A stretch of DNA of 64,000 nucleotides, taken from assembly GCA_000002445.1 (NCBI GenBank), contig CP000066.1, positions 1,344,001 to 1,408,000 of the forward strand, written 5' to 3'. Shown here piece by piece: positions 5,395-44,502 of this stretch. Below the pieces are notes generated by a model, which saw only the letters and a list, made by a program, of their open reading frames with translations, ran no database searches and was not told the DNA's origin. The stretch comes from Trypanosoma brucei (taxonomy: Eukaryota). A program made the translations under genes and the position numbers. Each line of letters begins with the position of its first letter. The stretch's first letter is position 1.

Positions 5395-5764
5395 GACAAA
5401 TTCACAGATCTGCCCCGTACCTCACCGCTCCAAACATCAAACCTTGGAGAGGCAACATCAAAGGAGGATAGGGAACAACAAAGACATATGGAGGAGTAGC
5501 AACCGCAGGCTGCAACACTGTAGTGACGGGGAACCAACAAAAAATATGCAAACGCCATGTCCACCACTCACAAGCAAGCTGGTGGGAAGTCTCCCGATGA
5601 ATGGTAAAATAAATGTTACCCACTCATGCGCTAGCAATAAACTTTACCAATACTACCTCCTTCATGTTTCTCATTTCTCCCTCCCCAACCCTAAAAATAA
5701 AATTCACCTGTGTTTCCTGCACACACAGTCATGCGTAGTGGAGCCATGCACAAAATATACTGGC

Positions 5765-8380
5765 TCACCGCGGAAAGAACAGGTAGGAGAGCTTTTGTCC
5801 ACATCCCCACCGGCTCTGTAACCAGCCGCTCATCCTTATGCGCTCCACAGCTCGGTGCACGGCCAGTCGCGCATGAGGAAGCGGATTCAATCGGAAGAAT
5901 TCGTCGAACTCCTTAGCATATGCTTCACCCGTGAGTGAAGAGCCAACAGCTTCCACGATGGCCTGAATCCGAAACGTTCCGCTTCCCCACTGCTTCTCGA
6001 TTCCCTGGAAGTGCTTCTTGAACAGCGACCAGACATAGCCATTTGGAAGAGAGGGGCTTCCCGCCATCGCAGAAAATATCACACCACCATACTGTGACCG
6101 GATACCGTCGTTATAGATACAGCGCTTCGCAATACCCTCGACAAATTCGGCATCCTCGGCATAGCAGACGGCTCGCAGCAACGAGCGGCATAACTCTACG
6201 TTGTCATGAGCCTCCGCAAACCGATTCCACACAGTCTGCGCACGTGCCGAAGTTTCCCCGGGTCCTAAGCGTATATACGCTGCCAGGGACATGGTAAGCG
6301 TGTCGGCGGTATACGTTGACCCTCCCAGATAAGCATCTGCTTCCTTCAGTGCCCACTCAACTGCTGGCAGCGCGAGTGCCTCCTTTGCAGACAGGCAATG
6401 AAGTGCCGTGGAAATGCATGCGTTGATAAAGAAGGCACGCTGCAGGCGCTCCTCTGCCGTACACGGTTCTGTCGAAACAAGCTTCGTCGCCACAACCATA
6501 ATCTGGTACATTAGATTGTGTCGCAGCTCCCGCCGCACGTTGCCATCTTCCACGAATCCAAGGAAGTCATTCATATCGTGGTAGTACTCCTGCCACACTC
6601 CCGCATTCAACTCTCGCTCTGTGAGGACGCACCGGAGGATAGACAAACGCTCCACGTCATTATTTCCCATGTACACGGACGCCAGTGTGTCTGCAATCAA
6701 ACCACAACGGTCAGGGATGGTAAGAGACTTGTATGCCCCCAACAATGACGAGAAGCTTGCTTCATCGTATCTGCAACGAAAGAAGCCTCGCCTCCGCGGG
6801 TTTGCGTTAATCCAGGGCGACTGAGCGAGCTCTTTAGGGAGATCCACACGCTGTTCCCCGCTCCCCCGCAAGGCGACACGGTGGCTGGTCCCATTGGCGC
6901 CTTCCAACACCACAGGCACACACCATAGAGTACTCCTCCGCTCAGTCGCAGAGGCAAATTGACAAGGCTCTTGGCGCAGTATAACTACGCCAGACGATGG
7001 GCGGCTGACGTGGACAAGAGGGAAACCCATCTGTGTTGTGAAAGAATCCATCGCCTCCGTCAGTGGGACCCCAGAGGACTCTTCCAGTGCCTCCCACAGT
7101 TGTTTCGTCGTTGTTGCGCCATAGCGATGCTTTTTGATGTAATGGGCCACCGAAGATGCCCACTTCTCGCCTAGGAACGCCTCTAGCATGTGCACCAGAC
7201 CCATCCCCTTGTCGTAGCTAATCGCGTCGAATATCTGAGTAATCTCCGCGGGATCGCGGATGGGAACTTCCACAGGATGACTGTGCTCGTACATGTCACT
7301 TATCAGTGCGCTCGCCACACTTGCGTTGGCGTCCTCGTTGGCCCTCCATGCCGGCTGTAATTGGTGGGCAGCGTCATAGCCACACCACGAGGCAAATCCC
7401 TCCTTCAGCCATAGTCCTTCCCACCAGTTGACGGTCACCAGGTTGCCAAACCAGTTGTGCGACACCTCGTGGCAGATCAACTCCGCGGCACCCTTCAGTG
7501 CTGCAACACTGGACGTTTCTTCATCCACCAAAATGGCCTCCACGCAGGCAATGCAACCCCAGTTTTCCATCCCCCCGATTGGAAAGTCCGGTACGGCGAC
7601 GACATCTAACTTGGGTAGGGGGTACTTGCAATCAAAGAACTTCTCGAAGTACTCCAATGCAAAGGCGGTAGTGCGGAGTGCGAATGCTGCGCGCTGCAGC
7701 TTTCCAGGTACTGTGTAGACCCTTATCGGTATGCCACAGGTTGTGGTACCAATGTGTTCCAGTTCCCCCACGAAACACGCGGTGAGATATGGAGGCACTG
7801 CGGGCACCATCTCAAAATCATAGGTCACGACATTGGACTCCACCTTCTTCGCACGGAGCGGACCGTTCGACAGCACCGTGTAGTTTTCCATGTCGCACGG
7901 AAGGGACACACGGAGCTTGAAGTCTGCACGGGCTGCCGGCTCGTCCTGACAGATGTAAAAGCAGCGCGCTGCTGTCGGCTCAAAATGCGTAGCAGCCATG
8001 CGGTGCTCCGTGCCGTCACCAGTTTTGAAGCACACACGGTAAAAGCCCCTCATTTCCTCTCGAATTTCTTGCGTGTAGCTGAACGTCACCGTGTGCTCCT
8101 CCGCAGTTTCACCACTCAGCTGCAACTGCAAGGTGCTGGCCTCTTGGTTGTGCCCCACAATTGTCGCCCCACACACCTCGTGAATAGCCATCGTTGAGTT
8201 GTAATGCAACTGCAGCTCCTTTGATCCTTCCACATCAGCCGCCCTTCGCAGTACAATTGTTTCCTTCCCATCGTACTTCCAACCTGCGAGGTCTACGCTG
8301 ACGTGCAAGTCGTAGGACACAGGGACGAAGGGGTTGCGTAACTTCACCGTATTCGCGGCATCTGAGGGGAGAGTTGGCAT
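5765..8380 (-). CDS. M1-family zinc metalloaminopeptidase (aminopeptidase N / puromycin-sensitive aminopeptidase-like).
   Basis: 871 aa. GAMEN motif (GGMENWG), zinc-binding HEVSHNWFGNLVTVNWWEGLWLKEGFASW (HExxH ... E) and a C-terminal ERAP1-like helical domain. Confidence 0.9.
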   Translation of the reverse strand: MPTLPSDAANTVKLRNPFVPVSYDLHVSVDLAGWKYDGKETIVLRRAADVEGSKELQLHYNSTMAIHEVCGATIVGHNQEASTLQLQLSGETAEEHTVTFSYTQEIREEMRGFYRVCFKTGDGTEHRMAATHFEPTAARCFYICQDEPAARADFKLRVSLPCDMENYTVLSNGPLRAKKVESNVVTYDFEMVPAVPPYLTACFVGELEHIGTTTCGIPIRVYTVPGKLQRAAFALRTTAFALEYFEKFFDCKYPLPKLDVVAVPDFPIGGMENWGCIACVEAILVDEETSSVAALKGAAELICHEVSHNWFGNLVTVNWWEGLWLKEGFASWCGYDAAHQLQPAWRANEDANASVASALISDMYEHSHPVEVPIRDPAEITQIFDAISYDKGMGLVHMLEAFLGEKWASSVAHYIKKHRYGATTTKQLWEALEESSGVPLTEAMDSFTTQMGFPLVHVSRPSSGVVILRQEPCQFASATERRSTLWCVPVVLEGANGTSHRVALRGSGEQRVDLPKELAQSPWINANPRRRGFFRCRYDEASFSSLLGAYKSLTIPDRCGLIADTLASVYMGNNDVERLSILRCVLTERELNAGVWQEYYHDMNDFLGFVEDGNVRRELRHNLMYQIMVVATKLVSTEPCTAEERLQRAFFINACISTALHCLSAKEALALPAVEWALKEADAYLGGSTYTADTLTMSLAAYIRLGPGETSARAQTVWNRFAEAHDNVELCRSLLRAVCYAEDAEFVEGIAKRCIYNDGIRSQYGGVIFSAMAGSPSLPNGYVWSLFKKHFQGIEKQWGSGTFRIQAIVEAVGSSLTGEAYAKEFDEFFRLNPLPHARLAVHRAVERIRMSGWLQSRWGCGQKLSYLFFPR

Positions 8381-8638
8381 GTTAAACCCTTGATTGATAA
8401 CTTGTTAACTTGTCTGAAAAGTGAGAAAGCGCAAGGTTGCAATCAGTGAGGACAACACGCGGCAGGAGGGGGGAGGGTTCGAGTTGCGAAAGAGGTGTGA
8501 CAGGGCACAGAACGACCTCCTACAGCACGCAGTACAATCAAAGCGAAAAGGGATTTACACGGTGTAGAGCAATAGAGTTGAACTCGTTTTGGAGTGGTGT
8601 TGTTGAAGATTTGTAGCTGTTGTTAACAAAATGTGGGC

Positions 8639-26786: not shown

Positions 26787-28190
26787 AAGATGCGGGGGTA
26801 TGCTCATCAAGAGGAGAGGTGGTGCAACAAGGCTATAAATGAAGGTGGATGACAATGATTTTTCTCCACGGCGAAGAGAAAGCTTGTATTAAAGAAAAAT
26901 TCTTTTGAAATTACAGACCCCTTCAATAAAACATTAATTTGCCGACTCCAGACACTCTTACAAAGGGGGGGGGACACGTGTAATGCTAAGGGATCAGATA
27001 TCGTGGGTACCTTACAGACGCACAGCCTCTTCATCCAATAAACCAATAACCATCCTCAACCACCTCAACACACAGTGCGACCGGAGTAGTGTTCCTCAGA
27101 AGCGTCGACACTTCACATATTTCTCCGCACAGCCACCCCAATATTAGGACTTCATTCTGTGTTTACTGCGGCAGTTCATCGCATGCCAGACGGGAATACC
27201 ACCACATATTCACATACTGTTACAACAAATCATTGATCCGTGCCCATGCTACATAATAATATATAAGAAAACTAGTTTGCTTCCCGTTAGTACGCACCTC
27301 CAAGCAAACGTTCAAAAAGAACGAAAACATTGGTCCATCTCCAACGCATTAGAGGAACAGATGAGGGCTTCGTATTGCCCTTCTGATTTCACAACCTTCT
27401 CATGGGAGAAATGCCGCGAGCTGTTGCCGGTCTCCTCAGATAAAAATACACAGATGTCGTTGATACTCCCCTCCTCAGCCCGAATTGTACGTTATAATAT
27501 GATTACCTATATAAGTGCCTAATGGTTACCGTAATTTGGGTGACAAACGCCATGAATCCTGTTACCGATGGACGCGTTGTAGTTAAACTCGAAAAAAAAA
27601 AACACTCACCAGAAGTATCCAAAATATTAAACACGATCACCATCGACATGTGGATCGCATCTTCATCCTTGTCAGGTCCCCCCAAACAAGCTCACAGATC
27701 CTGCGGTACTATAATTGTCTGAGTCGCGCTGATTTCTGCTGTTTTGGTATTACCGCGGTGAGGCCATCTCATAGTGTATCGCGCTTACAAGAGCGTTCCT
27801 TTGACACCCCGCTACTTTTTAAGCTGCCCCACGTGCCATCATGTCAAACTGTTTGACCGACGAGATTGTGCAGGCATTAGGACAAAAGAAATATAAAATG
27901 AACACAGGAACGGTGATTGTCGTTGCCAGCAGTAGTCTATCAAAAATAATAAAAGGCACGAGGAGACGTAGACAATCAGCGAAGAAATTGCAGGTGTATT
28001 TGAACTGAAACTCTGCTGAGGACTCATATGACTCCCTATCTTTCACGCAAGACATTAGCGGCCAAAGAGTTTCGCATGTTTTCTTATATTTACTCCTTAC
28101 GTTTTAGTATCACTCGTTCCCTCACCAAATAAGACTCAATGGAGTTTACCCGCTTCAACTATGCTAGTGTTTCATTCAGCCTTCACCATC

Positions 28191-28739
28191 TTATTCAAAG
28201 GCTAGAAGAGGGTTTTGGAACAGTTCATCAAATTCTGTCAGCGCGCGCTCGAGGAACTCTATGTCCTTGCACTCCGGAGAAAAAAACCTGAAGAGAGAAT
28301 CGGTTCGAGCCTTCTCGGTTCCAGGTTTCCATAGTATGGGTTGCAGAGAAAGTGTATTTACACTGGGATCAAGCTCACGGGAGAAGGTTCCCTCTTTCAC
28401 AAACATGTTCGGGCGAAAAGTCACCGACACGCAACGGCAGATAGACCCGTCCCTAACACTTGTCTTCACTCTAAAGTCTGTCAGAGCCCGTACAATTTTT
28501 GGATCAATTGTACCATTTAGTAACCCCATAAGGGGAGATTCCACTGCCACAAATGCACTGCCCCAAAACCCTTCTATTTTTTCCAGCTCGAGGTGCCGTT
28601 TATCGAAAAGTGGTTCAATCTTTGACCGGAAATCAATGCGCACTTGATTTGTAAATTCTTCGATTTCCTTTTCCACAGCTGTCACTTTCTCATTGCATTG
28701 AGTAACCGCATTAAGAACGTCCACCGGTATGGAGCTCAT
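28191..28739 (-). CDS. Nucleosome assembly protein (NAP/SET family) histone chaperone, short form.
   Basis: NAP-domain signature: EKIEGFWGSAFVAVESPLMGLL (compare IPGFW...HP.L), followed by VSVTFRPNMFVKEGTFSRELD (compare the F.F..N.YF.N..L.K block). The track start is GTG; the ATG MSSIPVDV is at 28739. Confidence 0.6.
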   Translation of the reverse strand: MSSIPVDVLNAVTQCNEKVTAVEKEIEEFTNQVRIDFRSKIEPLFDKRHLELEKIEGFWGSAFVAVESPLMGLLNGTIDPKIVRALTDFRVKTSVRDGSICRCVSVTFRPNMFVKEGTFSRELDPSVNTLSLQPILWKPGTEKARTDSLFRFFSPECKDIEFLERALTEFDELFQNPLLAFE

Positions 28740-28946
28740 CTTCACTTGTTGTGTTCTATATGACGCAATTGAGTTTCAAACGCAGAAGTCCACCAGGACG
28801 AAGAACAGGAAACAGCGAAGTAGAAGGAAGACAAAAAGTAATACGTCAAGTAGCAAAAGAAAATAATAAATTGACCACCACAAGTTCAGTAACCCTGAAC
28901 CTGCTCCAAAGGGGGGGGATCCGAGTGCAAAGATGTTACAAGCATT

Positions 28947-29561
28947 TCAAATCCTTTTCGCTAAAGCCACACCCAGAGAACACATTATACGAATGCCATT
29001 GTACAAAAGTGGGTACGCTGGTGCATTTTCTGCGCCATTTTGCTCCCCGAGCTCCTGGTGATGCAGTTCTTCATCCCTGAACCGAGCAACATACTCCATG
29101 ACTTCTGCCCAGTCCTTTTCATCCTTGCCTTTCGAAGCACCTTCCGACTCCTCGAGGGATTGTAGCTCCCTAAGCTGATCATTATAGTGCTGTGCTATTG
29201 TGACTTCAACAGCAGCATGGCAACACATTACTGCATCCTTTCCCAGAAGAGCGGTGCAACTACCCATCACAAAGGCGCCCACGTGAAACAGTGGATCTAG
29301 TAACGTCAAGCGCACCGAATGCTTACGAGCTAGGTGACCCATAACCTCTTCGTGAACGAGCTCATCCCTCAGTATCTCCTTGACAACTGGCACGCCACTA
29401 TCGAGGGGGGACATCCATAGCAACTGATACTTGCATATGCGCACCGCAGCCACTTCCCCAGCCTGGTCAACGCGCACAGCTTCATCGAGCTTTTGCCGCT
29501 TCGCCGCGCTTCTGAAAACACGAGCTGGGTTCTGAAGGTTAACCACCGATCTGCGTAACAT
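28947..29561 (-). CDS. COQ7: Ubiquinone biosynthesis di-iron monooxygenase COQ7 (5-demethoxyubiquinone hydroxylase).
   Basis: RVDQAGEVAAVRICKYQ, LLDPLFHVGAFVMG, AVEVTIAQHYNDQLREL and FRDEELHHQELG...APAYPLLYNGIRIMCSLGVALAKRI match the COQ7/CLK-1 di-iron carboxylate motifs (ExxH pairs). This is the first gene of the minus-strand PTU, adjacent to the strand-switch region. Confidence 0.85.
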   Translation of the reverse strand: MLRRSVVNLQNPARVFRSAAKRQKLDEAVRVDQAGEVAAVRICKYQLLWMSPLDSGVPVVKEILRDELVHEEVMGHLARKHSVRLTLLDPLFHVGAFVMGSCTALLGKDAVMCCHAAVEVTIAQHYNDQLRELQSLEESEGASKGKDEKDWAEVMEYVARFRDEELHHQELGEQNGAENAPAYPLLYNGIRIMCSLGVALAKRI

Positions 29562-32059
29562 ACCTAACTAGCTTCAAGGGAAGGCATTTAGCAAACAAAC
29601 AAACATACAAAAGGATATATTGCCTAAAATGGTCGCGCAGCGAATGAATTGCTGAGACAAAGACTCCCAAACTATACCCCCTCTGGGATCAAGTAGGAAA
29701 TGAACATACTGTGGGATACTCGCGTTGGATCCGCCTCCTGTGAACCAGTATTTTCCATACGAGATGGCTGCTTTAGCGAAAAACCGACGAAGCAGTTCAC
29801 ATGCGTACACGGAGATGCGCACGCCGAGGTCAACCCTGGCTGGCCCGCTCCAGAACCGACTCCCAGTGCTGCCGCTGCAGAGAAGAGGGGAGAACGGCGA
29901 TGAATTCAGCGTGAGAACCCAGTTTACAATACCGTGGTGGGGCTCCTCCTACGCTACTTTGCCCACAAAAGCAGCCACACTCAACGCCTCCAGGCACGTG
30001 GAGGAAAATAAAGAAAGGTAAGAATCTCTTCTAACCCGAGACGGTGGCTCCACAGACCCTCAGCCTACTTCTAGCAACCAACGCAGTCGAGGACGGTAAT
30101 GAGAGGGAGGAAGCAGCCCGTTCACAATCAGCTCCAGGAAGCAAGAAAGACCTCGTAACCGCTGCTCCGAGTCGGGTGCCCACACGGGCAAAACTCCGCG
30201 CACCCTTTCGGGCCTCGGCACAGACCCAGTGCGATTCCCCATCCCACCTCTCCCAAAAAGTCCACCAGTGCGCTGTGCTTTCCACCTGACCACAGTCGTC
30301 CTGTTGCCAATATAACCCATTTCTTAAGGGAAGCCCCGTCGTCCACAGTTAAAAAGACGGCGTGTGGTCGTAGCGCCATGGGACTCTCCATATCTGTGCC
30401 TGCTGCTGAAATGCTCGCCCCGGCGATTGCCGTCCCTACAGCAGGCTCGTCTATTCAGTGAAAAAGAGAGGGGAGTTGGCATGTTGCGTGTGTGTGTCGG
30501 GGCTCAGTGCCTTCGTTGCTCCTTTGGGATTTCAGTATCAGTTTTTTACTCTCAGCACGCGCGTCGGCCACGCATAGGCCGCCTTTCCCGTTGGGGCGGC
30601 GTTCGCGCCCTTCTTTGAACGGGGTCGGCTTTACCCCTTTATCGTTTCCGTTTTTTTTTTTTCGAGGCTTCCTCCAGCCATATGTTCTGAGGATGGGTGT
30701 TGGGTACAAACTTCGTTGAAGTACCTGCTTAAGGTTCCTATTTTTTAGTTGTTTATCCCCCAAGTGGGGGTTACCTCGTCTGCGCCTTTGCCTGTGTGGG
30801 GCGCGGAAGACGGGACGGCTTACGACGGAGAGAGGTGCTCCTTTACAGGGGTAGAACGTTGCCAAACTTTTACTGTTTAGCCAAATCTTTTTGGTATATA
30901 TTTTGAGTATTAATTACCCTTTGGAGTGTGCACGTGTTGTTTTCCTTCACTTATACGCGTGTTCCCCGACTTCCAACTGTTGTGCAAGTCTCTTCCTTGG
31001 TTATTAAAAAAACACTAGTGGTTACAAGTTGCTTTACCATATCCTTACCGGTTGTTTTATTAAGGTGGTTCCGTTCAATTATGCGCGTAAGATGACGTGA
31101 TGTATTTATGTAATACGCATAGGCTTGTGTAAATGTGGTTTTCCACAATTCCCACAAATGTGTTACTGTGGATAGTTGTTTTTGTTCCGTTACGCTTCTT
31201 TGTTTTTAGACTATCGCGCACGTCACGGTTTAGGTCGCTTCCACTGCTCTTGTTGTTGTTGCAACGTCCTCGGCTATCTTCTTTGTATTGATAAGTGCGC
31301 CCGTCCGTCATAGCTAACCTGGTTGTTGTTAAGGGTTGTCAAATCTACCTATGCTTAGTACTTTATGCATTTAGGATATGCGCAGAACTGAACTTACTTC
31401 GTTTTTGCTGCCTCATTTGCCGATTCAGCACAGATGGGATGCTTTGCGTCTGCTTCATGGGGTGTGGAGGTGACGGTTTTTAGGTAACAGCCGACCTGCG
31501 TTTCTTTGTACCACTCTTTGGAGGACGACACTCCCTTTTTTGTGTCGCTGGGAGAAAGCGAGTAGTCGGAAAAACGAATGGTTCGCATCAGCGGTTGTTT
31601 ACTTCTTCAGTTTTGTTGTTTGTCACCCCCGTTTATGTGGCTGTTCGTGCAGATTTGTGCTTGTGGTAACCTGTGGAATGGTGGGCAAATCAGTAAAATC
31701 GTAGCGGTTGAGCCGTTTTAGCGCACATTTGGTGATTTCTTATGAGCAGTTTATAATAGGGGGTAAAGAGTGTTTCTGCCCCTTACGTCATAGGGTGGTT
31801 GTGCCTGTGGCGATGGTGCAGGACGGAATATTCTAGGTAACTTCTGGTTGTTCCGTGCTGCTAACCATATGGGGGAAATGCATGTTTGATTCTCTTGTTG
31901 GTTGTATTTAACAGCAAGTGATAACTTTGTCTGTTTCTTGTCATCATTTTCGAAGGTGACTGTTCCACTGAAATGTGATATTTTGCCGCCGACTTCGCCC
32001 CTCTCGACACTTGCAAGCAGCAACAGCAGCAAAGAGTGATGTGAAGTGACCAGGAAGCT
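29562..32059. promoter_or_regulatory. Divergent strand-switch region between the two PTUs, the putative bidirectional RNA Pol II start region. It is GT-rich on the plus strand toward the plus-strand PTU.
   Basis: Coding strand polarity switches from minus (COQ7 start at 29561) to plus (IPT start at 32060). No credible ORF lies in between. From 30600 to 32000 the plus strand is strongly G/T-rich (gttgttgttgcaacg, ggttgttgttaagggttg, and similar). GT-rich elements are the known promoter class at trypanosome divergent strand-switch regions. Confidence 0.6.
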
Positions 32060-33436
32060 ATGAGGTCTATTTACTTTGTCATAGGCGCGACCGGCAGTGG
32101 TAAGTCACTAGCAGCAGTTCGAGTTGCTAAGACCCTTCAGCTCAGGTGTGGCTGTAACAATGTGGTAATATTGAACTGTGACGTTATGCAGTTTTACGCC
32201 GGTCTTCCCATTGTGACGAACAAGATATCATCGGAGGAAATGGATGGGATTCCTCACTGCTTTATGAGTTTCCTTTCTCCCGAGGGCAATAAAATTCGCG
32301 ACCCAACGTTGGCATTCGGAGGTTGTGACCGTGAAGCATTTTCTGAACAGGGTTGTAAGTCTGCAAATGATGCGTATAATATTCATTCATTCGTTCGCGA
32401 TGCTGTAAGTTATATCGAAAGCTTTTTGTCAACTCATTCTCCTGCAGCGGTGGTCGTTTGCGGTGGAACGTGCTATTACGTCCAGTCACTGCTTTTCGAC
32501 AATCTTTTAACTGTAGAAGATACTCATGTGTCGGGGTGTCTGGACACAACTGGCGGGTGCGCAGAACACACCGAATTGAATGATGGGAATTCTCTTTGGG
32601 ACCAACTGAAGGATATTGACCCGGACATTGCTGCTCGATACCATCCCAACGACATCAGACGGATTCGGCGCCTCGTCGACATATACAAAAGGACCAATAG
32701 GATACCATCCGATGTTTATAACTCCAGGGAGAAGCCGCGACTTCGATTTTGTCCCAGTACGTGCTTCATATTGTGGACACACATTGAACTTGAAAAGCTT
32801 AGGCCAAAACTCAACGCACGTATAGATGTGATGGTCGAAAAAGGGATCATTGAGGAATGCCGCAAATTTGCTCAGCGGCATAAAGAGGACGTTTTTACGC
32901 TACCCCTAGGGAAAGCCATAGGTTTTAAAGAAATTGTTTCGTCCTTTGACATGTCGGGAAGTGAAGTTCAACTAAAGGGCGAACGCGAAGTTTCAGAGTC
33001 GCTGGATCTTCTGAAAGTGAACACCAACCGATACGCACGGCAGCAGTGCCAGTGGATAAAAAACCGCTTTCTTGGTCGTCTTCGCGAGCTGTTTGCTACT
33101 GTAAATCTGGAGGAAAACTTTGTTGCAGTTGACGCCTCTGCGAGTCCTTCCGATTTTCTTCGGCAAGTTGAAGTTGCCGTTTTGTTTTTCACCAAACGGA
33201 CGTGCGACAATGTCGCTGGGTTGTTTTTTCCATTGAAAAAAGATGTGTCAATACCATCCCCGGTTCGGCACGAGTGGTGTGGCGTCTGCAACGTCTTTTA
33301 TACCGATGGGAGGGGGAGAATCTCACATCTGCATTCGAAACGACACAGGGGTGCCCTAAGGCACGAGGCGTTGGTGAAGGAGCAAGCTGAGAAGTTTGGT
33401 CGGATAATTCCTTCTAAGAGAGTTAAGCGGTCGTAA
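32060..33436 (+). CDS. tRNA dimethylallyl(isopentenyl)transferase (MiaA/Mod5 family) with a C-terminal C2H2-type zinc finger.
   Basis: P-loop VIGATGSGKSLAAVRVA, conserved DxxQ(F)Y(AG) region and the C-terminal zinc finger WCGVCNVFYTDGRGRISHLHSKRHRG typical of eukaryotic Mod5. Confidence 0.9.
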   Translation: MRSIYFVIGATGSGKSLAAVRVAKTLQLRCGCNNVVILNCDVMQFYAGLPIVTNKISSEEMDGIPHCFMSFLSPEGNKIRDPTLAFGGCDREAFSEQGCKSANDAYNIHSFVRDAVSYIESFLSTHSPAAVVVCGGTCYYVQSLLFDNLLTVEDTHVSGCLDTTGGCAEHTELNDGNSLWDQLKDIDPDIAARYHPNDIRRIRRLVDIYKRTNRIPSDVYNSREKPRLRFCPSTCFILWTHIELEKLRPKLNARIDVMVEKGIIEECRKFAQRHKEDVFTLPLGKAIGFKEIVSSFDMSGSEVQLKGEREVSESLDLLKVNTNRYARQQCQWIKNRFLGRLRELFATVNLEENFVAVDASASPSDFLRQVEVAVLFFTKRTCDNVAGLFFPLKKDVSIPSPVRHEWCGVCNVFYTDGRGRISHLHSKRHRGALRHEALVKEQAEKFGRIIPSKRVKRS

Positions 33437-35130: not shown

Positions 35131-35438
35131 ATGTTGGCAGCAACGGGGTTCCGTCTCCATACCTCAAGCTCATCAAAAATAACGAAACAGTCCAAGGCAG
35201 GGTATACCTCACGCAGCCCGGGAAGGACTTCGTCACGTGTATCACGGATTTAATCTTTTCTTCTTGAATACGCGTCTGGCTTGGAAATACCTCCCGGCAG
35301 CTCAATGCAGGAGTTGCCTTAACTCGGCGGGAGCGGTTACTTCTGGAAAGCGCAACTAAAGATCTTCTTCGACTCGTCCCCTTTAGTTTCTTCATCCTCG
35401 TTCCGTTTGCCGAGCTCCTGCTACCTGTTGCACTGAAG
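35131..35438 (+). other. LETM1: Conserved LETM1 N-terminal coding segment lying in shifted reading frames relative to the downstream LETM1 ORF. No in-frame ATG is available.
   Basis: Frame 2 (35183-35297) encodes AAREGLRHVYHGFNLFFLNTRLAWKYL, matching human LETM1 [29 protein letters not shown]. Frame 0 (35268-35438, bounded by TGA at 35265) encodes LNAGVALTRRERLLLESATKDLLRLVPFSFFILVPFAELLLPVALK, matching [41 protein letters not shown] and continuing directly into the 35439 ORF. Frame 1 has ATG 35131, MLAATGFRLHTSSSS..., a presequence-like peptide. Deleting one C at agCCCGGgaag (~35217) and one C at ctCCCGGcag (~35297) restores a single ~481-aa ORF. Confidence 0.55.
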
Positions 35439-36575
35439 ATGTTTCCGGACCTGATTCCCTCAACATTTGAGAGTGAAAATCAGGGACGCAACAAGGCCTT
35501 TACGACTCTTATGGGAACGGTGCGTGCCCGACGCCGGTTGGCGGAATACCTGTCGTCCACTGCTTTTGTAAGCTTTACGAAAGAACAACAAGAAGTGGTG
35601 CGTTTCTCGGCAATGGGGGAGGCGGTGACCGCGAACCAGATACGTTTAATTGCACCTCATTTTGGTCGGGAAGGGCCGTTTAATGTCTACCAGATCCCCA
35701 ATGGTATTGCAGTAGCTCTGGCAAGGACTGTGGGAGTATACAAAGCATACCATGGTCTTGTTCCTAACAAAATTATGGCTCCTTACATGCGTCGTAAGAT
35801 CTTGCGGCAGTATCATAAAACCCGCGAGGATGACCGTATGCTACGTTTGGAGGGGCTTGACGATTTAACGGATGAGGAGCTGATAAAGGCGAACCTTGTT
35901 CGGGGTATGCGCTGGACAGAGGATGCGGAGACACTACGTATCCAACTTGAATGGTGGATATCTCTAGGACGTGACCCGGATGTCCCTTACAACACCCTTT
36001 TCTGGGTCAAGCCTACCCGATACAGCTTGAAAGAGTCAATGAAACGCTTGCCTGTGGAACAGCGCCGGCAGCTATTGGGCATTCAACATCTTCCCGAGAG
36101 CATTCGTGGAAATCTCGAGACACTCTGCGAAACGGTCGACACAGCTCCATCCATGAGTGAGGGTAAACCTGAGGACGCTGATCAGCTAGTGGAGAAACTT
36201 GCAGAGTTAAATGCTAAAACGAAAATCAGTGATAAGGATATTGCAATTCAGAATATTCAAATATCGCTGGGCGCTTATCTAACGGAACCAAATGTGAAAC
36301 GTATGTTTGAAGACATTCGCAAAAGTAAAACAGTGAACGAATATATAACAGTTACGGATGTCATAGATTTCATTGGAAGTGAAACCCATAATTCTTCCCA
36401 TGTAGTTTCTACTGTGTTTGATGCGTTCGATCAGAGTAGCGGAGTGAAGGCAATTACCGAATCTACACTCATATCTATCGGGGCCCGCTGCAGGGAGGCG
36501 TCAAAGGCACATGTCGACGTATCGTCTCAGTCTTCCCCAGGCAAACAGCCTTCAGAGGTGATTGCAAAAAATTAG
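35439..36575 (+). CDS. LETM1: LETM1-like mitochondrial inner-membrane protein (K+/H+ exchange; LETM1 ribosome-binding domain). This is the ORF as it stands from the first in-frame ATG; the true N-terminus is probably upstream (see the 35131-35438 segment).
   Basis: MFPDLIPSTFESENQ matches LFPNMLPSTFETQS of LETM1 immediately after the TM helix. Downstream are LETM1-domain helices and a long acidic/coiled C-terminus. 378 aa from this ATG. Confidence 0.8.
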   Translation: MFPDLIPSTFESENQGRNKAFTTLMGTVRARRRLAEYLSSTAFVSFTKEQQEVVRFSAMGEAVTANQIRLIAPHFGREGPFNVYQIPNGIAVALARTVGVYKAYHGLVPNKIMAPYMRRKILRQYHKTREDDRMLRLEGLDDLTDEELIKANLVRGMRWTEDAETLRIQLEWWISLGRDPDVPYNTLFWVKPTRYSLKESMKRLPVEQRRQLLGIQHLPESIRGNLETLCETVDTAPSMSEGKPEDADQLVEKLAELNAKTKISDKDIAIQNIQISLGAYLTEPNVKRMFEDIRKSKTVNEYITVTDVIDFIGSETHNSSHVVSTVFDAFDQSSGVKAITESTLISIGARCREASKAHVDVSSQSSPGKQPSEVIAKN

Positions 36576-38458
36576 GTTGTACCGGTGTTTTTTCCCCGTA
36601 TCATCACCAACGTTTACCGACTGTTCGCCATGGAGGAAGCACCATGACTGTAGGTTCATCGAGGGGGGGGGGTAGCAACCCCGAAGAACATATACATTAC
36701 TTCCGCCTTGTGCTCAGGGACATTGAACTACCATTTGCTCCAGTGAACGATGTTTCATGACAAAGACTGGTGCGAAATTGGTATGTATTACGTTTATGTA
36801 TGTGCGGATTAATGTTTTGGCTCCCGTTTTCTCTGTTCAGGGCTGCGGCGTTACTAGCGCGATTAAAGAACGTTGGGTGGGGAGGGGGTATAAGGCATGT
36901 TTACCCTTGTACCCGGGTGTAGCACAAATTTATGCGGCAGCAGGGAAGTATATGAACATAACTGTAGGGGTCCTGCGCGAAGAGCGGGTGACGTGCAATT
37001 ATATCATAGATCTGAAACTTGAATGAAAGCATTCTACTTCGTTTTTAAATTCCCCCTTTCTACAACTTTGAGGAAAGATATACATCAAGTGATCCATGTA
37101 GCCGCACATGAAACCCAGTTCGACTGGCTGTTGTTACCGTGCATTCGATATTGGGAAGAGGACGGCACCCCTTCCCGCTATTTCACCCACGGGTGCGCTG
37201 CGAACGTTAAACGCTTCAACGACGTCGGGTTTCTTTCGACAGTTTGGTGTCGCTGGTAATGGAGTGCAGAGTTTTCCGAAGCAAGCTCAAGAAAGGGCAT
37301 GTTCCCACCCGACTGCTAAATTTCTTTCAGGCAAATATAAGCGGTGGATACACCCGGTGGATTTCGAGTCTTTGAACGAACCCACCCTGTCAATTTGATT
37401 GTGATGAGTTATGTGATATTTTTCTATCATGTTTTGGCGCGTCATAATGACATAGTCACTTCTTTGTGTTTTACCCGAGTCGGAGGCGCCACTTAATACT
37501 ATGTAGGTGAGTTTTTGGTGGGATTCGGCTCAGCAGTTGCACTATTGTGACTCCGTTGATACACAGCGTGTCGAAGGCATGCACCTTATTTCGATAACCA
37601 CATCAATGAAAAGCGTTGTGTTTCATGCGAACTTTGGTGTTTCACACATTCTACTTTACCTCTTTTCATACTGGAGCGGTAGTTGGGATCATGTTTACGA
37701 CGGTATCTTTTTAAAAATATATATATATATATATATATACCATCTGTTAACCCAGTTATCTGTTTTTCGTTGTTTGTGGCGTCGGTTTTGTTGTTAAAGG
37801 CACATTTTAGCGCCATCATTACCTATTAGTGCCCCGATTTGTTGTCGTTGTTATCACTGGAAGTTTCTTTGTACTGTAGCCACTCGTTACCGTGAGTGGT
37901 TGAATCGTTTTTCGACTGGTCAACTATTTTGACTTGAAGGACCCGTCGTATCCTCTGGCATGTGGTGTTCGTGGTTGATACAAACGTGTTTGTGCGTGGT
38001 TTGCTGGGGTTTCGACTGCAGCGCTTGTGTTATTTGGCAGTGACCACAAGTACAAACTGTCTGTCGCACAAACCACCTAGCTAGCAAAAAATTTTGCCAC
38101 ATGCACGTCTTGAATAAACGGACGTGGCGACGTTCATGCTAATTTCATCGGTTACGTTGCTTGGGGGAAGTGCTGTAGCATTATTCGCGATAGGGGAGGG
38201 ATTTTTTTTTTTGGAGTGTTTATTTGTTTCTTCCCTTTAATGGTGCAGAGGAATGGGCTTGATACAGCTCGGGGATGTCGCTGTACTTTGATCGGGGGAA
38301 ACGACTAAAGGGTATCTGTGAAGATGTTTTTGTTGGTGGGGAGATGCTTAGAGGTGAGTTATCTACATGGAAGTGGGTCTGCATTGCCGCTGCCTGCATT
38401 CCCTTATTTTGAACGGTAGTCGCTCAACGATGCTTCTTCCCACATATTTTGAGAGCGA

Positions 38459-39085
38459 ATGAGAGAAACTGCTATTATGAACAACAGATTAGTACTACCT
38501 GCTTCAGCTTCCACAGATGCAGAGAACGGCAGTGTACACGTTCGTGGCGGCACCCGGTGCTGCGGGCCCTGTTGTCACTCAGACCAAAAGCGAGGACGGT
38601 CAGTGTGGACGAAGCCCACGTTAGAAGCAGACGACACTGCTGACAGCGACGCGTGTGAAGATGTCGTGAAGCGCAGTGAGCGGCTCTTGGAACTCTTGCG
38701 CGTGCGCAAGATTCAGTGTGATTCAGCTGTTGATACTTCTAGCATGATTTATGATGTGGAAGCAGAGATGTCACCATTGGCTGCTTCTGGCACGCGGATG
38801 TGTAGGGCCGTTTTTTCCCAATCCTCTGCTCTTGTGCCTTTGTCCTCCATCGCTGGGGATAAGGATCTCGTGGAGTTTGATGTATCTGGGGAAGAGAAAA
38901 CTAACCCGGTGCCGGTGAGCTCTCGTTCGCTACTGAAAGTTGCTATTACTTGTACGGACGCAGAGACACAAACACTTCCCGCTCCGGTGGGCTATCGGGT
39001 GGAAAACCCAATAATGACAAAACCTGATTGGTTCGTTCTTCGGTTATGTGAATTGGACGCTTTACTTCACATATTTTTTTCCTGA
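38459..39085 (+). CDS. Hypothetical protein.
   Basis: 208-aa ORF on the PTU-consistent strand with an ATG start, preceded by a long T-rich spacer. No recognisable motifs. Confidence 0.35.
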   Translation: MRETAIMNNRLVLPASASTDAENGSVHVRGGTRCCGPCCHSDQKRGRSVWTKPTLEADDTADSDACEDVVKRSERLLELLRVRKIQCDSAVDTSSMIYDVEAEMSPLAASGTRMCRAVFSQSSALVPLSSIAGDKDLVEFDVSGEEKTNPVPVSSRSLLKVAITCTDAETQTLPAPVGYRVENPIMTKPDWFVLRLCELDALLHIFFS

Positions 39086-39311
39086 GATTGTTTATTCGTT
39101 TATTTGATTCTTTTTTTTTTCCCGCACCACGTCTATTTTTATACTTTTTGCAGATGGGACTGCATGTTTTCCCCTCCTGACTGCTCGGCTCAGTGTTGCC
39201 CATCTTCCTCCGCCGTGGTTGCCGGTTTCCCAGTAGTTGCGTTCGTGAGGTGATCCTATTTCTCTGACCCCTCCGGCTGCTTTATAGAATAAGAAGCTAA
39301 GTAATCAAAAA

Positions 39312-41561
39312 ATGACCTCACTCGTCCTAAATCACTATTCGCAGGAGGAAGTCAGCCGACTTTTCAATCTTTCGTCTCCACGAGACCTATTTCACCAGCG
39401 CACGCCGGCGCTGGCCGACGGAGACGTGAAACAGAAGGTGGAGGAGATACGCTCTTACGTGCATAGCACTATGGAACTGTATGAGAGGGTTTTTGAATGC
39501 CTCTCGTCGGAGGAAGCGTTTTTCGTTCAACCGATCCACAAGCTTCGCCACCCCTTAATTTTTTACTACGGCCACACTGCCTGCTTCTACATAAATAAGT
39601 TGTGCGCCGCTGGACTCTCCATGCGAATTCGCCCACACCTTGAGGAGGCGTTTGCAGTTGGTGTGGATGAGATGAGCTGGGATGATCTTAACGAAGAGCA
39701 CTATAACTGGCCAACAGTGGAGGAAGTTGTAGAGTACCGCCGTGCTGTCCGTAAGCACGTGGATGGCATGATGACAAGTGGCAAATTTGAACTGACCCTT
39801 CCCTTGACATTTGCTGGAAGCACAGAGAACGCTGACAGTTCATTTTGGTGGTTAATGTTGATGTGTGCTGAGCACGAGCGCATCCACGTCGAAACCGCCT
39901 CCGTTCACGTGCGAGAACTTCCCATGCGTTATGTGAGGCCGTCTATGGATCAGTTCTGGAAGCCGTGTGGGGAGGCAGGTTGCGAAGCCCCGGCAAACGA
40001 GCTGGTGGATGTAGCCGGGGGACGGGTAGCCGTCGGACGTGCGCCTAACTCTGAGCTATACGGTTGGGATTGCGACTACTCTGACGGAAATTATGTGCTT
40101 AATGTTGCACCGTTCAAGGCGAGTAAGTACTTAGTGTCTAACGCGGAGTTCTTTACCTTTGTTGTTGCAGGTGGTTACGCTACGCAACGCTACTGGGATG
40201 AGGAAGGGTGGAACTGGGTCCAGTGGAGGAAACCTGAGTGTCCCTGGTTCTGGGTTCGCGATGAGAACCGACCCAAGGGTTATGCGCTTCGACTTCAAAC
40301 GACGCTTATTGACTTGCCGTGGAGCTGGCCATGTGAGATTAACAATCTTGAGGCTCGGGCGTTTTGTAACTTTAAAAGTGAGCAAACTGGGAAGAAAATT
40401 CGTATGCCTACAGAAGCTGAATGGCTGATTCTTTGGGACCGGTACGTCGGCAAAGATCAAATGTTGTGGGATGTAGCGCCGGGGAATGTTAACATGGAAC
40501 ACTTCCAAAGTAGTTGCCCTGTCGATAAGTTTGCTCACGGTCCATTTTTCGATATAGTTGGAAACGTGTGGCAGCACTGTGAAACACCAGTATACCCGTA
40601 TCCTGGTTACCAGGTGCATCCATTCTACGATGATTTTTCTATGCCTACCTTTGATGGTCGCCATGCGTGTATGAAAGGCGGGGCATGGGTTAGTACGGGG
40701 AACGAGGCTACACGCGATGCTCGCTTCGCCTTTCGCCGCCATTTCTTCCAATACATCGGACTTCGATACGTGGAAGGTGAACCGGTGCAAGAGGGGTTTC
40801 TCAACTTGAATTCGTTGGGGCTTGATCCCATGGTGGATGCCATTACGGATGCCAACTACCGTCCTTCGTTTAATGACATCCCTAATGGTTTCGTACAGAT
40901 AGCAGAATTTGTTATGAACCAGTTCAGGTGTTGTGCTAGGACAGGGCCGAAGCGTGCCCTTGATTTTGCGTGTGGGGCTGGACGGATAGCATTTGAGCTG
41001 ACGTCAATGTTTGATCAAGTGGTTGGGTCGGATTTTTCTGCCCGATTGCTCATTCCCGCCTACGCTATCAGTGAGCGCGGAAGCTACACATATAGTATTG
41101 TGAACTCTTCTACGTCGAGACGTGTAGAACAAACCTTCAAGTCGCTGGGGTACCCGTGGGATGCAACCCGAGGGCGCGCTGTTTTTTTTCAAGCAGATCC
41201 TACGAACCTACACTCCCACATGAAAGATTTCTCGTTGATCTTGTGCTGGAACACGCTGGATAGGAGCTACAACCCCACCGCTGTTCCGTCGCATATGGTT
41301 GACAGGCTTGTGGTGGGTGGTTTGATTGTCTTCGGGCTTGATGGAGTGACTGATGAAGTCAACGAAGGAAAGAGGGAGCAGGGGGGTGAGGAAACACCCA
41401 AGCAGGTCGTCTTCTCAGAAAACGAGATCTATCATCTGTTGGGCGGAGAAAACGTGGTGGACCGCGTCGGAGACCCAACACAACTGACGGTTGCGTTTCC
41501 TGCGTCAGACTCTACAGCAACTTTCAGAAAAGTTCGGCTGTCCGTCTACCGAAAGAAATAA
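39312..41561 (+). CDS. ovoA: 5-histidylcysteine sulfoxide synthase OvoA (ovothiol biosynthesis). It combines a DinB-like iron-binding domain, an FGE-sulfatase domain and a C-terminal SAM-dependent methyltransferase domain.
   Basis: The N-terminal DinB_2-like domain carries the iron-binding HX3HXE motif (CAEHERIHVE). The FGE-sulfatase domain has RMPTEAEWL and GNVWQHCET (compare GNVWEW). The C-terminal class I methyltransferase motif I is LDFACGAGRIAFEL. This three-domain order is diagnostic of OvoA rather than fungal Egt1, which has the reverse order. Trypanosomatids are known ovothiol producers. Confidence 0.85.
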   Translation: MTSLVLNHYSQEEVSRLFNLSSPRDLFHQRTPALADGDVKQKVEEIRSYVHSTMELYERVFECLSSEEAFFVQPIHKLRHPLIFYYGHTACFYINKLCAAGLSMRIRPHLEEAFAVGVDEMSWDDLNEEHYNWPTVEEVVEYRRAVRKHVDGMMTSGKFELTLPLTFAGSTENADSSFWWLMLMCAEHERIHVETASVHVRELPMRYVRPSMDQFWKPCGEAGCEAPANELVDVAGGRVAVGRAPNSELYGWDCDYSDGNYVLNVAPFKASKYLVSNAEFFTFVVAGGYATQRYWDEEGWNWVQWRKPECPWFWVRDENRPKGYALRLQTTLIDLPWSWPCEINNLEARAFCNFKSEQTGKKIRMPTEAEWLILWDRYVGKDQMLWDVAPGNVNMEHFQSSCPVDKFAHGPFFDIVGNVWQHCETPVYPYPGYQVHPFYDDFSMPTFDGRHACMKGGAWVSTGNEATRDARFAFRRHFFQYIGLRYVEGEPVQEGFLNLNSLGLDPMVDAITDANYRPSFNDIPNGFVQIAEFVMNQFRCCARTGPKRALDFACGAGRIAFELTSMFDQVVGSDFSARLLIPAYAISERGSYTYSIVNSSTSRRVEQTFKSLGYPWDATRGRAVFFQADPTNLHSHMKDFSLILCWNTLDRSYNPTAVPSHMVDRLVVGGLIVFGLDGVTDEVNEGKREQGGEETPKQVVFSENEIYHLLGGENVVDRVGDPTQLTVAFPASDSTATFRKVRLSVYRKK

Positions 41562-43002: not shown

Positions 43003-44502
43003 ATGCGGCGTGCATTGTACCGTGGGGTGACCGAGTCAGGAGCTGAAATAAGAAATTTTGCTGTTCACGCTGGATGCATGCGACGCTGGTGCAGCGCTGC
43101 GAGTGGTTCTTCGCGTGGTGATAGGCCCACTGATTATGATGTACCTCCACCGCGCCCCGCCTTTTATGTGCCCCCGGAGGAACGAGCATCAGACGATGCC
43201 TCGCTACAGTTTCTTCGGAAAGACAGTGGAGTGCGCTCAGGTCTGATGAAGGGATGTGGGGATGCGACTGGTGAGGTTAAACTAGAGCCTGGCCAACTCT
43301 TCGCCCCCGAGCCTCCCGTCCGCCCGGCGGAATCACCCAGTTACATCAATGAAAAAGCAGCGCGATTGTCATCTACAAGTGTCCGCGCAGGGGCCTCCTT
43401 GTTAACGGGGGACATCGGAGCAGAGGTCAGTCGTCTAGCGGTGGTGAAAAATTCCACATCTACGCGGAACCGAAGCGAGAAAACAGATGCATCTCCACCC
43501 CTCACGTATGGGGGGAGTAAAGGATCGATATTTGAGTCGAGGGACGTAGCCGATGGAGTGCCGGAAGGGAAAAAGATCAGACAACATGAAGGAACTGTTG
43601 GCAGAGGTGAGGAAGGCGGAGAAACCACTGGAGGAAATCCCACTGGCGATGAATTGCCGCTCTTACAACAAATGCAGGTTGATCTTCGCCGTCTGGAATA
43701 CTACCAGGGGACCCCCCAATATCCAGAGATGCTGAAGGAGTTCCGCGCAAAATACTTATCTGACGGCGGTAGCGAGGGTGAAGGGGACGGACGTCTGGAG
43801 GACCTTCGGTCTTACACCCAGGAAGAGCTGGCGCGCGGACTGGAGTCACAGCCAATTGATTATCTTCGGGCTAGCAGTAAGTTGAAGGTGGAGCTTACCA
43901 GCGGCCCCAGAGCGTACGACCCGGTACTTGTCATGCAGCAGATGGGTGTGATGCGGTTTCAAGGGTATGCTTTCCCTCCCACGACGGAATTAGGTAGGCT
44001 ATGCGACAGTGATGGAAAACTGCCGGACTCGAGCGAAGGTGCCCATAGATTTGCCAAGTATGTAGCTCAGACGGCTCCAACAGCCATCAAAGATCAATTG
44101 AAAGGCAATGAGGACAGGCACATTCTCTATCGAACAATGGGCCTAGACGTCGTACAACGCCGACAAGTGAAGGCTATGTTGAGTGACTTTGACCACGGTG
44201 ATCGCCATACGTCATACCATGTGATGATGTCGTATCCCTACGCTGACTGGTTACATGTGTTCTACATGGTTTTGGTGGGGGTGGCGATATATGAGATGCA
44301 GGTTCGATTTTGTGCGTATGACTTTTATGATGAGTATTTGGGATTGGACCTGCGCCAAGTTCCCAAATTGAAGAAGCCCTTCCTTGTCACTGTTACTGTT
44401 GTGGTGATGGTAGTCGCACTGTTTCACCCACTGCTTCTAGTTAGCATTGCAACCACGCGTCTTTATCGCATCGCGATGAAGCGCCCTGTTGGACCTCCAT
44501 AA
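43003..44502 (+). CDS. Hypothetical protein with C-terminal transmembrane helices.
   Basis: 499-aa ORF with an ATG start. The C-terminus VFYMVLVGVAIYEM ... LVTVTVVVMVVALFHPLLLVSIA is predicted to be 2 TM helices. The N-terminal half is low-complexity Ser/Gly/Glu-rich. Confidence 0.45.
   Translation: MRRALYRGVTESGAEIRNFAVHAGCMRRWCSAASGSSRGDRPTDYDVPPPRPAFYVPPEERASDDASLQFLRKDSGVRSGLMKGCGDATGEVKLEPGQLFAPEPPVRPAESPSYINEKAARLSSTSVRAGASLLTGDIGAEVSRLAVVKNSTSTRNRSEKTDASPPLTYGGSKGSIFESRDVADGVPEGKKIRQHEGTVGRGEEGGETTGGNPTGDELPLLQQMQVDLRRLEYYQGTPQYPEMLKEFRAKYLSDGGSEGEGDGRLEDLRSYTQEELARGLESQPIDYLRASSKLKVELTSGPRAYDPVLVMQQMGVMRFQGYAFPPTTELGRLCDSDGKLPDSSEGAHRFAKYVAQTAPTAIKDQLKGNEDRHILYRTMGLDVVQRRQVKAMLSDFDHGDRHTSYHVMMSYPYADWLHVFYMVLVGVAIYEMQVRFCAYDFYDEYLGLDLRQVPKLKKPFLVTVTVVVMVVALFHPLLLVSIATTRLYRIAMKRPVGPP

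Follow-up and report, generated by a model that had tools for sequence, protein, structure and literature searches.

OvoA is the bifunctional enzyme of ovothiol A biosynthesis, in which a sulfoxide synthase is joined to an N-pi-methyltransferase. It was discovered through the recombinant enzymes of Erwinia tasmaniensis and Trypanosoma cruzi, for which O2- and Fe(II)-dependent coupling of His and Cys and S-adenosylmethionine-dependent N-pi methylation have been shown (Braunshausen & Seebeck 2011, as cited in later papers). The first OvoA crystal structure is that of OvoA_Th2 from Hydrogenimonas thermophila (8KHQ), with metal ligands H71, H162, and H166, catalytic Y406, cysteine bound by R62, Y68, and the backbone of V102, and histidine contacted by F409 (PMC10696552). 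Genetic evidence, covering loss of ovothiols A and B, viability, and macrophage infection, is available for Leishmania only (bioRxiv 10.1101/2023.12.08.570742). Here we describe the corresponding locus of Trypanosoma brucei, which lies in a 64-kb stretch of contig CP000066.1 (positions 1,344,001 to 1,408,000; this whole stretch is called the window, and coordinates are those of the window unless another locus is named). The open reading frame (ORF) at 39312..41561 is almost certainly the T. brucei orthologue of OvoA. The gene and its function are already known, in trypanosomatids since 2011, and nothing about them is new here; what was computed is the integrity of the ORF, its domain and family membership, the conservation of catalytic residues, the predicted fold, and synteny with T. 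cruzi and Leishmania.

In the ORF listing of the window, the gene is a single uninterrupted plus-strand frame of 749 codons with an ATG start and a TAA stop. Because an in-frame stop at 39285 lies 27 nucleotides (nt) 5' of the ATG, position 39312 is the first possible start. At the base composition of the window, an open frame of 749 codons has a probability of ~6e-17 of arising by chance. The orthologues of other trypanosomes are also 749 amino acids (aa) long, and the alignment covers 100% of the length; start and stop are therefore conserved, and the gene is complete. A sequence-only reading of this DNA had described a complete ORF of just this extent carrying the motifs HERIHVE, RMPTEAEWL, GNVWQH, and LDFACGAGRIAFEL. 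The ORF listing agreed with it exactly, and each of the four motifs occurs exactly once in the 749-aa product.

The protein is residue for residue that of T. b. brucei TREU927 (XP_844085.1, AAZ10526.1, UniProt Q582P2), and the 90%-identity cluster also holds the T. b. gambiense and T. equiperdum copies. In a TriTrypDB-derived table the gene, Tb927.3.4940 (2250 bp), is named "5-histidylcysteine sulfoxide synthase, putative," and the T. equiperdum RefSeq entry bears the same name. The TREU927 and DAL972 proteins are listed as "hypothetical protein, conserved" in GenBank/RefSeq and as "Generic methyltransferase" in UniProt; these names lag behind and could be updated. An antisense ORF of 219 aa with a TTG start (40131..40790) lies inside OvoA and is regarded as a fortuitous consequence of the coding sequence on the other strand.

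Domain architecture, fold, and orthologues

All three parts of OvoA, a DinB_2 domain, an FGE-sulfatase domain, and an S-adenosylmethionine (SAM)-dependent methyltransferase domain, were found in one polypeptide, as follows.

39312..41561, plus strand: complete OvoA coding sequence, 749 aa plus TAA stop (ORF; exact match to the T. b. brucei TREU927 protein)
39402..40772, plus strand: sulfoxide-synthase module, aa 31-487, non-heme iron 5-histidylcysteine sulfoxide synthase (TIGR04344; fold match)
39474..39896, plus strand: DinB_2 four-helix-bundle domain with metal ligands, aa 55-195 (Pfam PF12867)
39993..40772, plus strand: FGE-sulfatase (C-type-lectin-like) domain, aa 228-487 (Pfam PF03781)
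40821..41555, plus strand: SAM-dependent 5-thiohistidine N-pi-methyltransferase domain, aa 504-748 (TIGR04345; OvsM/OvoM sequence and fold matches)

The DinB-like and FGE-sulfatase domains proposed from the letters alone were recovered by the Pfam scan, DinB_2 (PF12867) with 40.8 bits against a cutoff of 24.8 and FGE-sulfatase (PF03781) with 63 bits against 23.3. The proposed architecture of sulfoxide synthase plus N-pi-methyltransferase likewise held, since both NCBIfam equivalog-domain models of OvoA were passed: TIGR04344 (ovoA_Nterm) with 577 bits against a cutoff of 400, over model positions 2-444 of 444, and TIGR04345 (ovoA_Cterm) with 239.7 bits against 170, over positions 3-242 of 242. 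Among solved structures the best match by sequence is bifunctional OvoA 8KHQ (E = 1.2e-152, aa 46-674), followed by the OvoA-derived EgtB-IV structures (1.5e-77). That the C-terminal domain is a methyltransferase is borne out by TIGR04345 and by matches of this part, in sequence and in fold, to the stand-alone N-pi-methyltransferases OvsM (9bxh, 8e-14) and OvoM (9bxl, 1e-11) in the PDB.

An AlphaFold2 model built on a 17-sequence alignment and searched against the PDB with Foldseek has a mean predicted local distance difference test score (pLDDT) of 77.7 and a predicted template modeling score of 0.77. Its low-confidence stretches (aa 381-400, 440-481, and 684-698) are probably due mainly to the shallowness of the alignment. 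The top Foldseek match is again 8KHQ (E = 1e-56, 735 aligned columns), with a template modeling (TM) score of ~0.6 and a root mean square deviation of 18 Å because the predicted interdomain angle differs. The two halves superpose well on their separate counterparts: the N-terminal half on EgtB-IV structures with TM scores of 0.82-0.86, and the C-terminal domain on OvsM/OvoM with TM scores of 0.81-0.83 over ~250-260 columns, nearly their whole length.

Amino acid identity is highest to T. congolense (74%), followed by the other trypanosomes (66-70%; T. cruzi, 68%), Leishmania (~60%), Bodo saltans (59%), and the bacterial OvoAs (~45%), and nearly all matches within kinetoplastids align at full length. 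In T. cruzi the gene order is IPPT, signal-peptide peptidase, LETM1, an ABC2 transporter, an ORF of ~200 aa, OvoA, an ORF of ~500 aa, and kinesin. In L. major the stretch that begins with the signal-peptide peptidase and ends with the ~500-aa ORF is ordered in the same way, with no kinesin called within the flank that was fetched, and the window has the T. cruzi order minus the ABC2 gene. Synteny together with similarity supports orthology with the biochemically characterized T. cruzi gene and the Leishmania gene tested by genetics.

The T. cruzi enzyme shares ~68% identity over 98% of its length, the three-domain architecture, and the catalytic residues; it is 752 aa long, against 749 aa here, and its locus has one more gene, that of the ABC2-type transporter, which separates LETM1 from the small ORF. 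The Leishmania enzyme (L. major P0011) is ~60% identical at full length, syntenic, and identical in its catalytic residues, but it is 757 aa long, and the variable loop of its methyltransferase domain carries a larger insertion. With OvoA_Th2 (8KHQ) the identity is 42.5% over 603 aligned residues; the metal, cysteine, histidine, and tyrosine sites are the same, and the two-domain layout is recovered by the fold search. The trypanosome protein departs from 8KHQ in three places: its N terminus is longer, ~26 residues being missing from the aligned bacterial OvoAs; the DinB domain has ~8-10 extra residues near aa 167-177; and the final ~75 residues have diverged. OvoM (9BXL) and OvsM (9BXH) are stand-alone 5-thio-/5-selenohistidine N-pi-methyltransferases, whereas the methyltransferase of the window is fused to a sulfoxide synthase and only 21-23% identical to them.

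Several points weigh against the assignment. Our literature search gave no paper naming Tb927.3.4940 and no experiment, whether biochemical or genetic, in which the T. brucei protein was studied, and the lyase needed between the two reactions of OvoA is described as elusive in kinetoplastids (bioRxiv 10.1101/2023.12.08.570742). Part of the active site falls within aa 440-481, modeled with low confidence. The generic Pfam methyltransferase models scored slightly below their gathering thresholds (best, 23.6 against 27 bits), so that on Pfam alone the third domain would be no more than suggestive. Finally, per-domain identity, used here in place of dN/dS given the likely saturation of synonymous sites in T. 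cruzi, is lowest in the last ~75 residues (the 74 residues at aa 676-749), with 42% identity to T. congolense, compared with 72-85% for the other domains, and only 7-18% identity to bacteria.

The last two of these points, and a loop at aa 684-698 that is disordered in the model, speak for a reading in which the synthase half works but the methyltransferase half has lost, or is losing, its function in the lineage of T. brucei, leaving only the 5-thiohistidine precursor as the product. This is highly unlikely. TIGR04345 was matched end to end above its cutoff, and the SAM-site residues D551, C554, G557, R558, Q627, D629, and N647 are all there; these residues and E562 are invariant in a 17-sequence alignment of Trypanosoma, Leishmania, Phytomonas, Bodo, Diplonema, another eukaryote, and four bacteria, and D574, the acidic residue ending strand beta-2, is nearly invariant. 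SAM-binding motif I itself is LDFACGAGR in the trypanosome proteins and LDVGCAVGR in the bacterial ones. The tail at aa 700-749 is modeled with a pLDDT of 85-94; it contributes one helix and, to complete the sheet, two long strands. The domain as a whole superposes on OvoM/OvsM as described above. Moreover, the methylated product, ovothiol A, has been detected in T. brucei, where it was quantified in the procyclic metabolome (PMC7307792), and in bacterial OvoA as well the methyltransferase domain is the more variable part. We found no sign of decay of the methyltransferase domain, the features of which are the following.

40959..41000, plus strand: SAM-binding motif I, LDFACGAGRIAFEL, aa 550-563 (motif occurrence; conserved residues in the 17-sequence alignment)
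41025-41039, plus strand: GSDFS, aa 572-576, conserved methyltransferase motif
41184-41207, plus strand: FFQADPTN, aa 625-632, conserved methyltransferase motif containing Q627 and D629
41361..41405, plus strand: lineage-variable, probably disordered loop, aa 684-698 (pLDDT below 50; heavily gapped and of variable length in the 17-sequence alignment)

Active site, substrate, and reaction

Residues were mapped from 8KHQ through its alignment with the window protein in the search of solved structures. The counterparts of the 8KHQ residues are R79, Y85, H88, V118, H188, H192, Y439, and F442, and all are identical to those of the crystallized enzyme. Arg79 and Tyr85, both near His88, are the counterparts of R62 and Y68, which bind cysteine in 8KHQ. 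R79, Y85, H88, H188, H192, E194, Y439, and F442 are invariant in the 17 sequences, and V118 is nearly so. The features of the synthase half are listed below.

39573..39575, plus strand: His88, first iron ligand (8KHQ H71; by mapping, invariant in 17 sequences)
39873..39893, plus strand: HERIHVE, aa 188-194; His188 and His192 are iron ligands 2 and 3 (8KHQ H162 and H166), and Glu194 is invariant
40401-40427, plus strand: RMPTEAEWL, aa 364-372 (motif occurrence in the translation)
40560-40577, plus strand: GNVWQH, aa 417-422 (motif occurrence in the translation)
40626..40637, plus strand: Tyr439 (catalytic, 8KHQ Y406) to Phe442 (8KHQ F409), in HPFYDDF (residue mapping)
40725..40733, plus strand: Phe472-Ala473-Phe474, histidine-pocket signature (FAF opposite NWF of 8vih in the alignment)

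Sulfoxide synthases have been distinguished by a composite motif, which reads RxYH--DxHxHYF(Y/F)AFx in OvoA (Kayrouz et al., PMC11030361). The window protein matches it with R79, Y85, H88, D119, H188, H192, Y439, F442, F472, A473, and F474. Motif positions 14-16 were assigned with a check against the EgtB-IV alignment, and D119 is the probable "D" of the motif, judging from V102/D103 of 8KHQ. The motif of the selenoxide synthases SenA and OvsA opens differently, as xNEH--HRHxHY... (PMC11030361). Such an x-N-E-H start was not seen in the window protein, the motif of which opens R-x-Y-H, and the SenA model NF041186 was not passed (116 bits against a cutoff of 420).

The DinB plus FGE fold is common to the EgtB enzymes, and the EgtB-IV structures (8VIG and 8VIH), which belong to the same sulfoxide-synthase clade and have the RxYH..DxHxHY positions in common with the window protein, are its second-best relatives in both sequence and fold. 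OvoA enzymes are, in addition, partly active on hercynine in vitro (PMC10696552). The protein might thus be conceived as an ergothioneine-type synthase (EgtB or EgtB-IV) that acts on hercynine at C2 and is fused to an unrelated methyltransferase, but we give this next to no credence. The EgtB equivalog model TIGR03440 reached 125 bits against a cutoff of 360, and the best matches are OvoA and not proteins of EgtB type only, so that this check, proposed in the sequence-only reading, came out in favor of OvoA. The pocket reads (Y/F)AF in OvoA and NWF in hercynine-using EgtB-IV (PMC11030361). In the window protein, the F-A of OvoA replaces the hercynine-binding N-W pair, and (F/Y)AF is kept in 17/17 aligned sequences. 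Since F472-A473-F474 stands opposite N-W-F of EgtB-IV, the pocket is of the histidine-accepting, C5-selective OvoA type. EgtB-IV also lacks a methyltransferase domain, and the one fused here is specifically of the OvoA/OvoM type. Knockout of the Leishmania orthologue, furthermore, removes ovothiol. As far as motif and model scores can tell, an EgtB function is already refuted. That the main cellular role is thiol (cysteine) dioxygenation instead of ovothiol synthesis is just as implausible: cysteine sulfinic acid is a side product of bacterial OvoAs and predominates when substrate analogues are supplied or Tyr is mutated, but Y85 and Y439, the tyrosines that keep the enzyme on the sulfoxide-synthase path, are both conserved, the methyltransferase domain is retained, and the organism contains ovothiol A.

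For the OvoA assignment, we infer that the T. brucei protein itself performs both reactions. The DinB and FGE-like module would bind Fe(II) via His88, His188, and His192, with L-cysteine held by Arg79 and Tyr85 and L-histidine placed in a pocket of Phe442 and Phe472-Ala473-Phe474. O2 and the catalytic Tyr439 would then allow formation of the C5-S bond to give 5-histidylcysteine sulfoxide. A separate pyridoxal phosphate (PLP)-dependent C-S lyase, not encoded in the window, would free 5-thiohistidine, and the C-terminal Rossmann-fold domain would complete ovothiol A by methylating the N-pi of the imidazole with SAM as the donor. Ovothiol A is an auxiliary low-pKa thiol that trypanothione keeps in its reduced state.

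Partner lyase and value as a drug target

The sequence-only reading had pointed to an OvoB-type PLP lyase as the partner of OvoA. No PLP-enzyme domain was found by Pfam scan in 23 ORFs of the window, namely, 22 of the 25 ORFs that are 250 aa or longer (all except OvoA and two nested ORFs) and the 208-aa ORF upstream of OvoA. OvoB has been called "elusive within the kinetoplastidae" (bioRxiv 10.1101/2023.12.08.570742), and it is absent from most animals too. Its absence from the window bears on the pathway and not on the membership of the gene in the OvoA family. It is conceivable, though a long shot, that the lineage-specific parts of OvoA, that is, the N terminus longer by ~26 residues, the DinB insertion of ~8-10 residues, and the rapidly evolving C-terminal tail that includes the disordered loop, help to recruit, or even replace, a C-S lyase other than OvoB; the window gives no positive support for this. 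If it were true, the kinetoplastid ovothiol pathway would be organized unlike the bacterial one.

Ovothiol had been put forward as a kinetoplastid redox thiol that the mammalian host lacks. The part concerning the host stands insofar as OvoA is missing from bony vertebrates, but ovothiol is not specific to kinetoplastids, being found in many bacteria, algae, and marine animals. The proposal of OvoA as a potential drug target, which has precedent in that OvoA was previously proposed as an anti-infective target, has lost ground. CRISPR deletion of OvoA in L. mexicana abolished ovothiols A and B but had essentially no effect on the growth of promastigotes, the infection of macrophages, or the proliferation of amastigotes, and reduced trypanothione and glutathione rose in compensation (bioRxiv 10.1101/2023.12.08.570742). 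Because this knockout shows ovothiol to be redundant in a trypanothione-centered thiol network, the drug-target idea is weak and calls for caution. Reviews describe ovothiol as a minor peroxide scavenger next to trypanothione that is prominent in insect stages. Our literature search gave no explicit statement on ovothiol in bloodstream-form T. brucei. Ariyanayagam and Fairlamb reportedly found, in 2001, little or no ovothiol in mammalian-stage trypanosomes.

Neighboring genes and window layout

Directly upstream of OvoA is a 208-aa ORF at 38459..39085 on the plus strand (XP_844084.1, Q582P3). It has no Pfam domain and is weakly similar to the syntenic 206-aa ORF of T. cruzi (29% identity, E = 7e-13). 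The stop codon of this ORF lies ~20 nt upstream of a polypyrimidine tract that precedes OvoA.

39108..39153, plus strand: polypyrimidine tract (39108-39123), then the first AG (39152-39153), putative trans-splice acceptor of the OvoA mRNA

From general knowledge of trypanosome mRNA processing, this tract and the AG upstream of the OvoA ATG are the likely trans-splice acceptor.

By accession order (XP_844084.1 immediately precedes the accession of OvoA) and by numbering, the 208-aa ORF is Tb927.3.4930. In an ORFeome gain-of-function screen, Tb927.3.4930, described as "hypothetical / flagellar," was 19-fold enriched among melarsoprol survivors (PMC7568655). The possibility that the gene of this screen is OvoA was rejected, as the ORFeome supplement lists OvoA as Tb927.3.4940. 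According to the same supplement, OvoA had ~0-3 reads in the library and was hence effectively unscreened for melarsoprol.

Farther upstream, LETM1 (Tb927.3.4920, 1137 bp) is annotated at 35439..36575 as a protein of 378 aa. Homology to the T. cruzi and Leishmania proteins does not stop at the annotated ATG but extends ~300 nt farther upstream and in doing so uses frames 1, 2, and 3. Relative to the window, an independent T. b. equiperdum assembly has 2 additional nt near 35206 and 1 nt fewer near 35291, exactly at the frame junctions. From an ATG equivalent to 35131, its LETM1 is a continuous ORF that encodes 481 aa and is colinear with the T. cruzi protein of 479 aa. The reference LETM1 model thus appears to be truncated N terminally by 103 residues via two small indels, which could be strain-specific changes or sequencing errors of the reference.

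In T. cruzi and L. major, LETM1 is separated from the small ORF by a gene for an ABC2_membrane-type transporter of 693 and 722 aa, respectively (T. cruzi, positions 6389-8470 of locus L001; L. major, positions 5456-7624 of locus L003). In the counterpart in the window, a 1.9-kb stretch at 36576-38458, all ORFs are shorter than 100 aa, and when the two transporter proteins were used as tblastn queries, no remnant was matched anywhere in the window at an E value of ≤1e-3. This suggests a lineage-specific loss of the transporter.

Downstream of OvoA, a plus-strand ORF of 499 aa (43003-44502) is conserved and has no Pfam domain; UniProt names it "Transmembrane protein." It is syntenic with ORFs of 517 aa in T. 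cruzi and 494 aa in L. major. Its length is 474 aa in the TREU927 record but 499 aa in those of gambiense and equiperdum. The longer model is favored because the T. cruzi homology begins at 43015, 4 codons into the ORF. A similar observation was made for the IPP-transferase ORF (IPPT) at 32060..33436, for which the tblastn alignment of the T. cruzi protein starts at 31982, in frame and 78 nt upstream of the first ATG, GTG, or TTG listed for the ORF. This 5' extension may be a weak extension of the alignment, or it may reflect a start-site or indel problem.

No tRNA and no Rfam family at its gathering score was found anywhere in the 64-kb window, strand-switch region included. This region, at ~26800-32050, is divergent: the large ORFs are on the minus strand to its left and on the plus strand to its right, and the sign of the GC skew flips. 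ORF orientation and GC skew together indicate two divergent polycistronic units in the window, as is typical of trypanosome chromosomes, and ~26800-32050 is presumably a polycistronic transcription start region.

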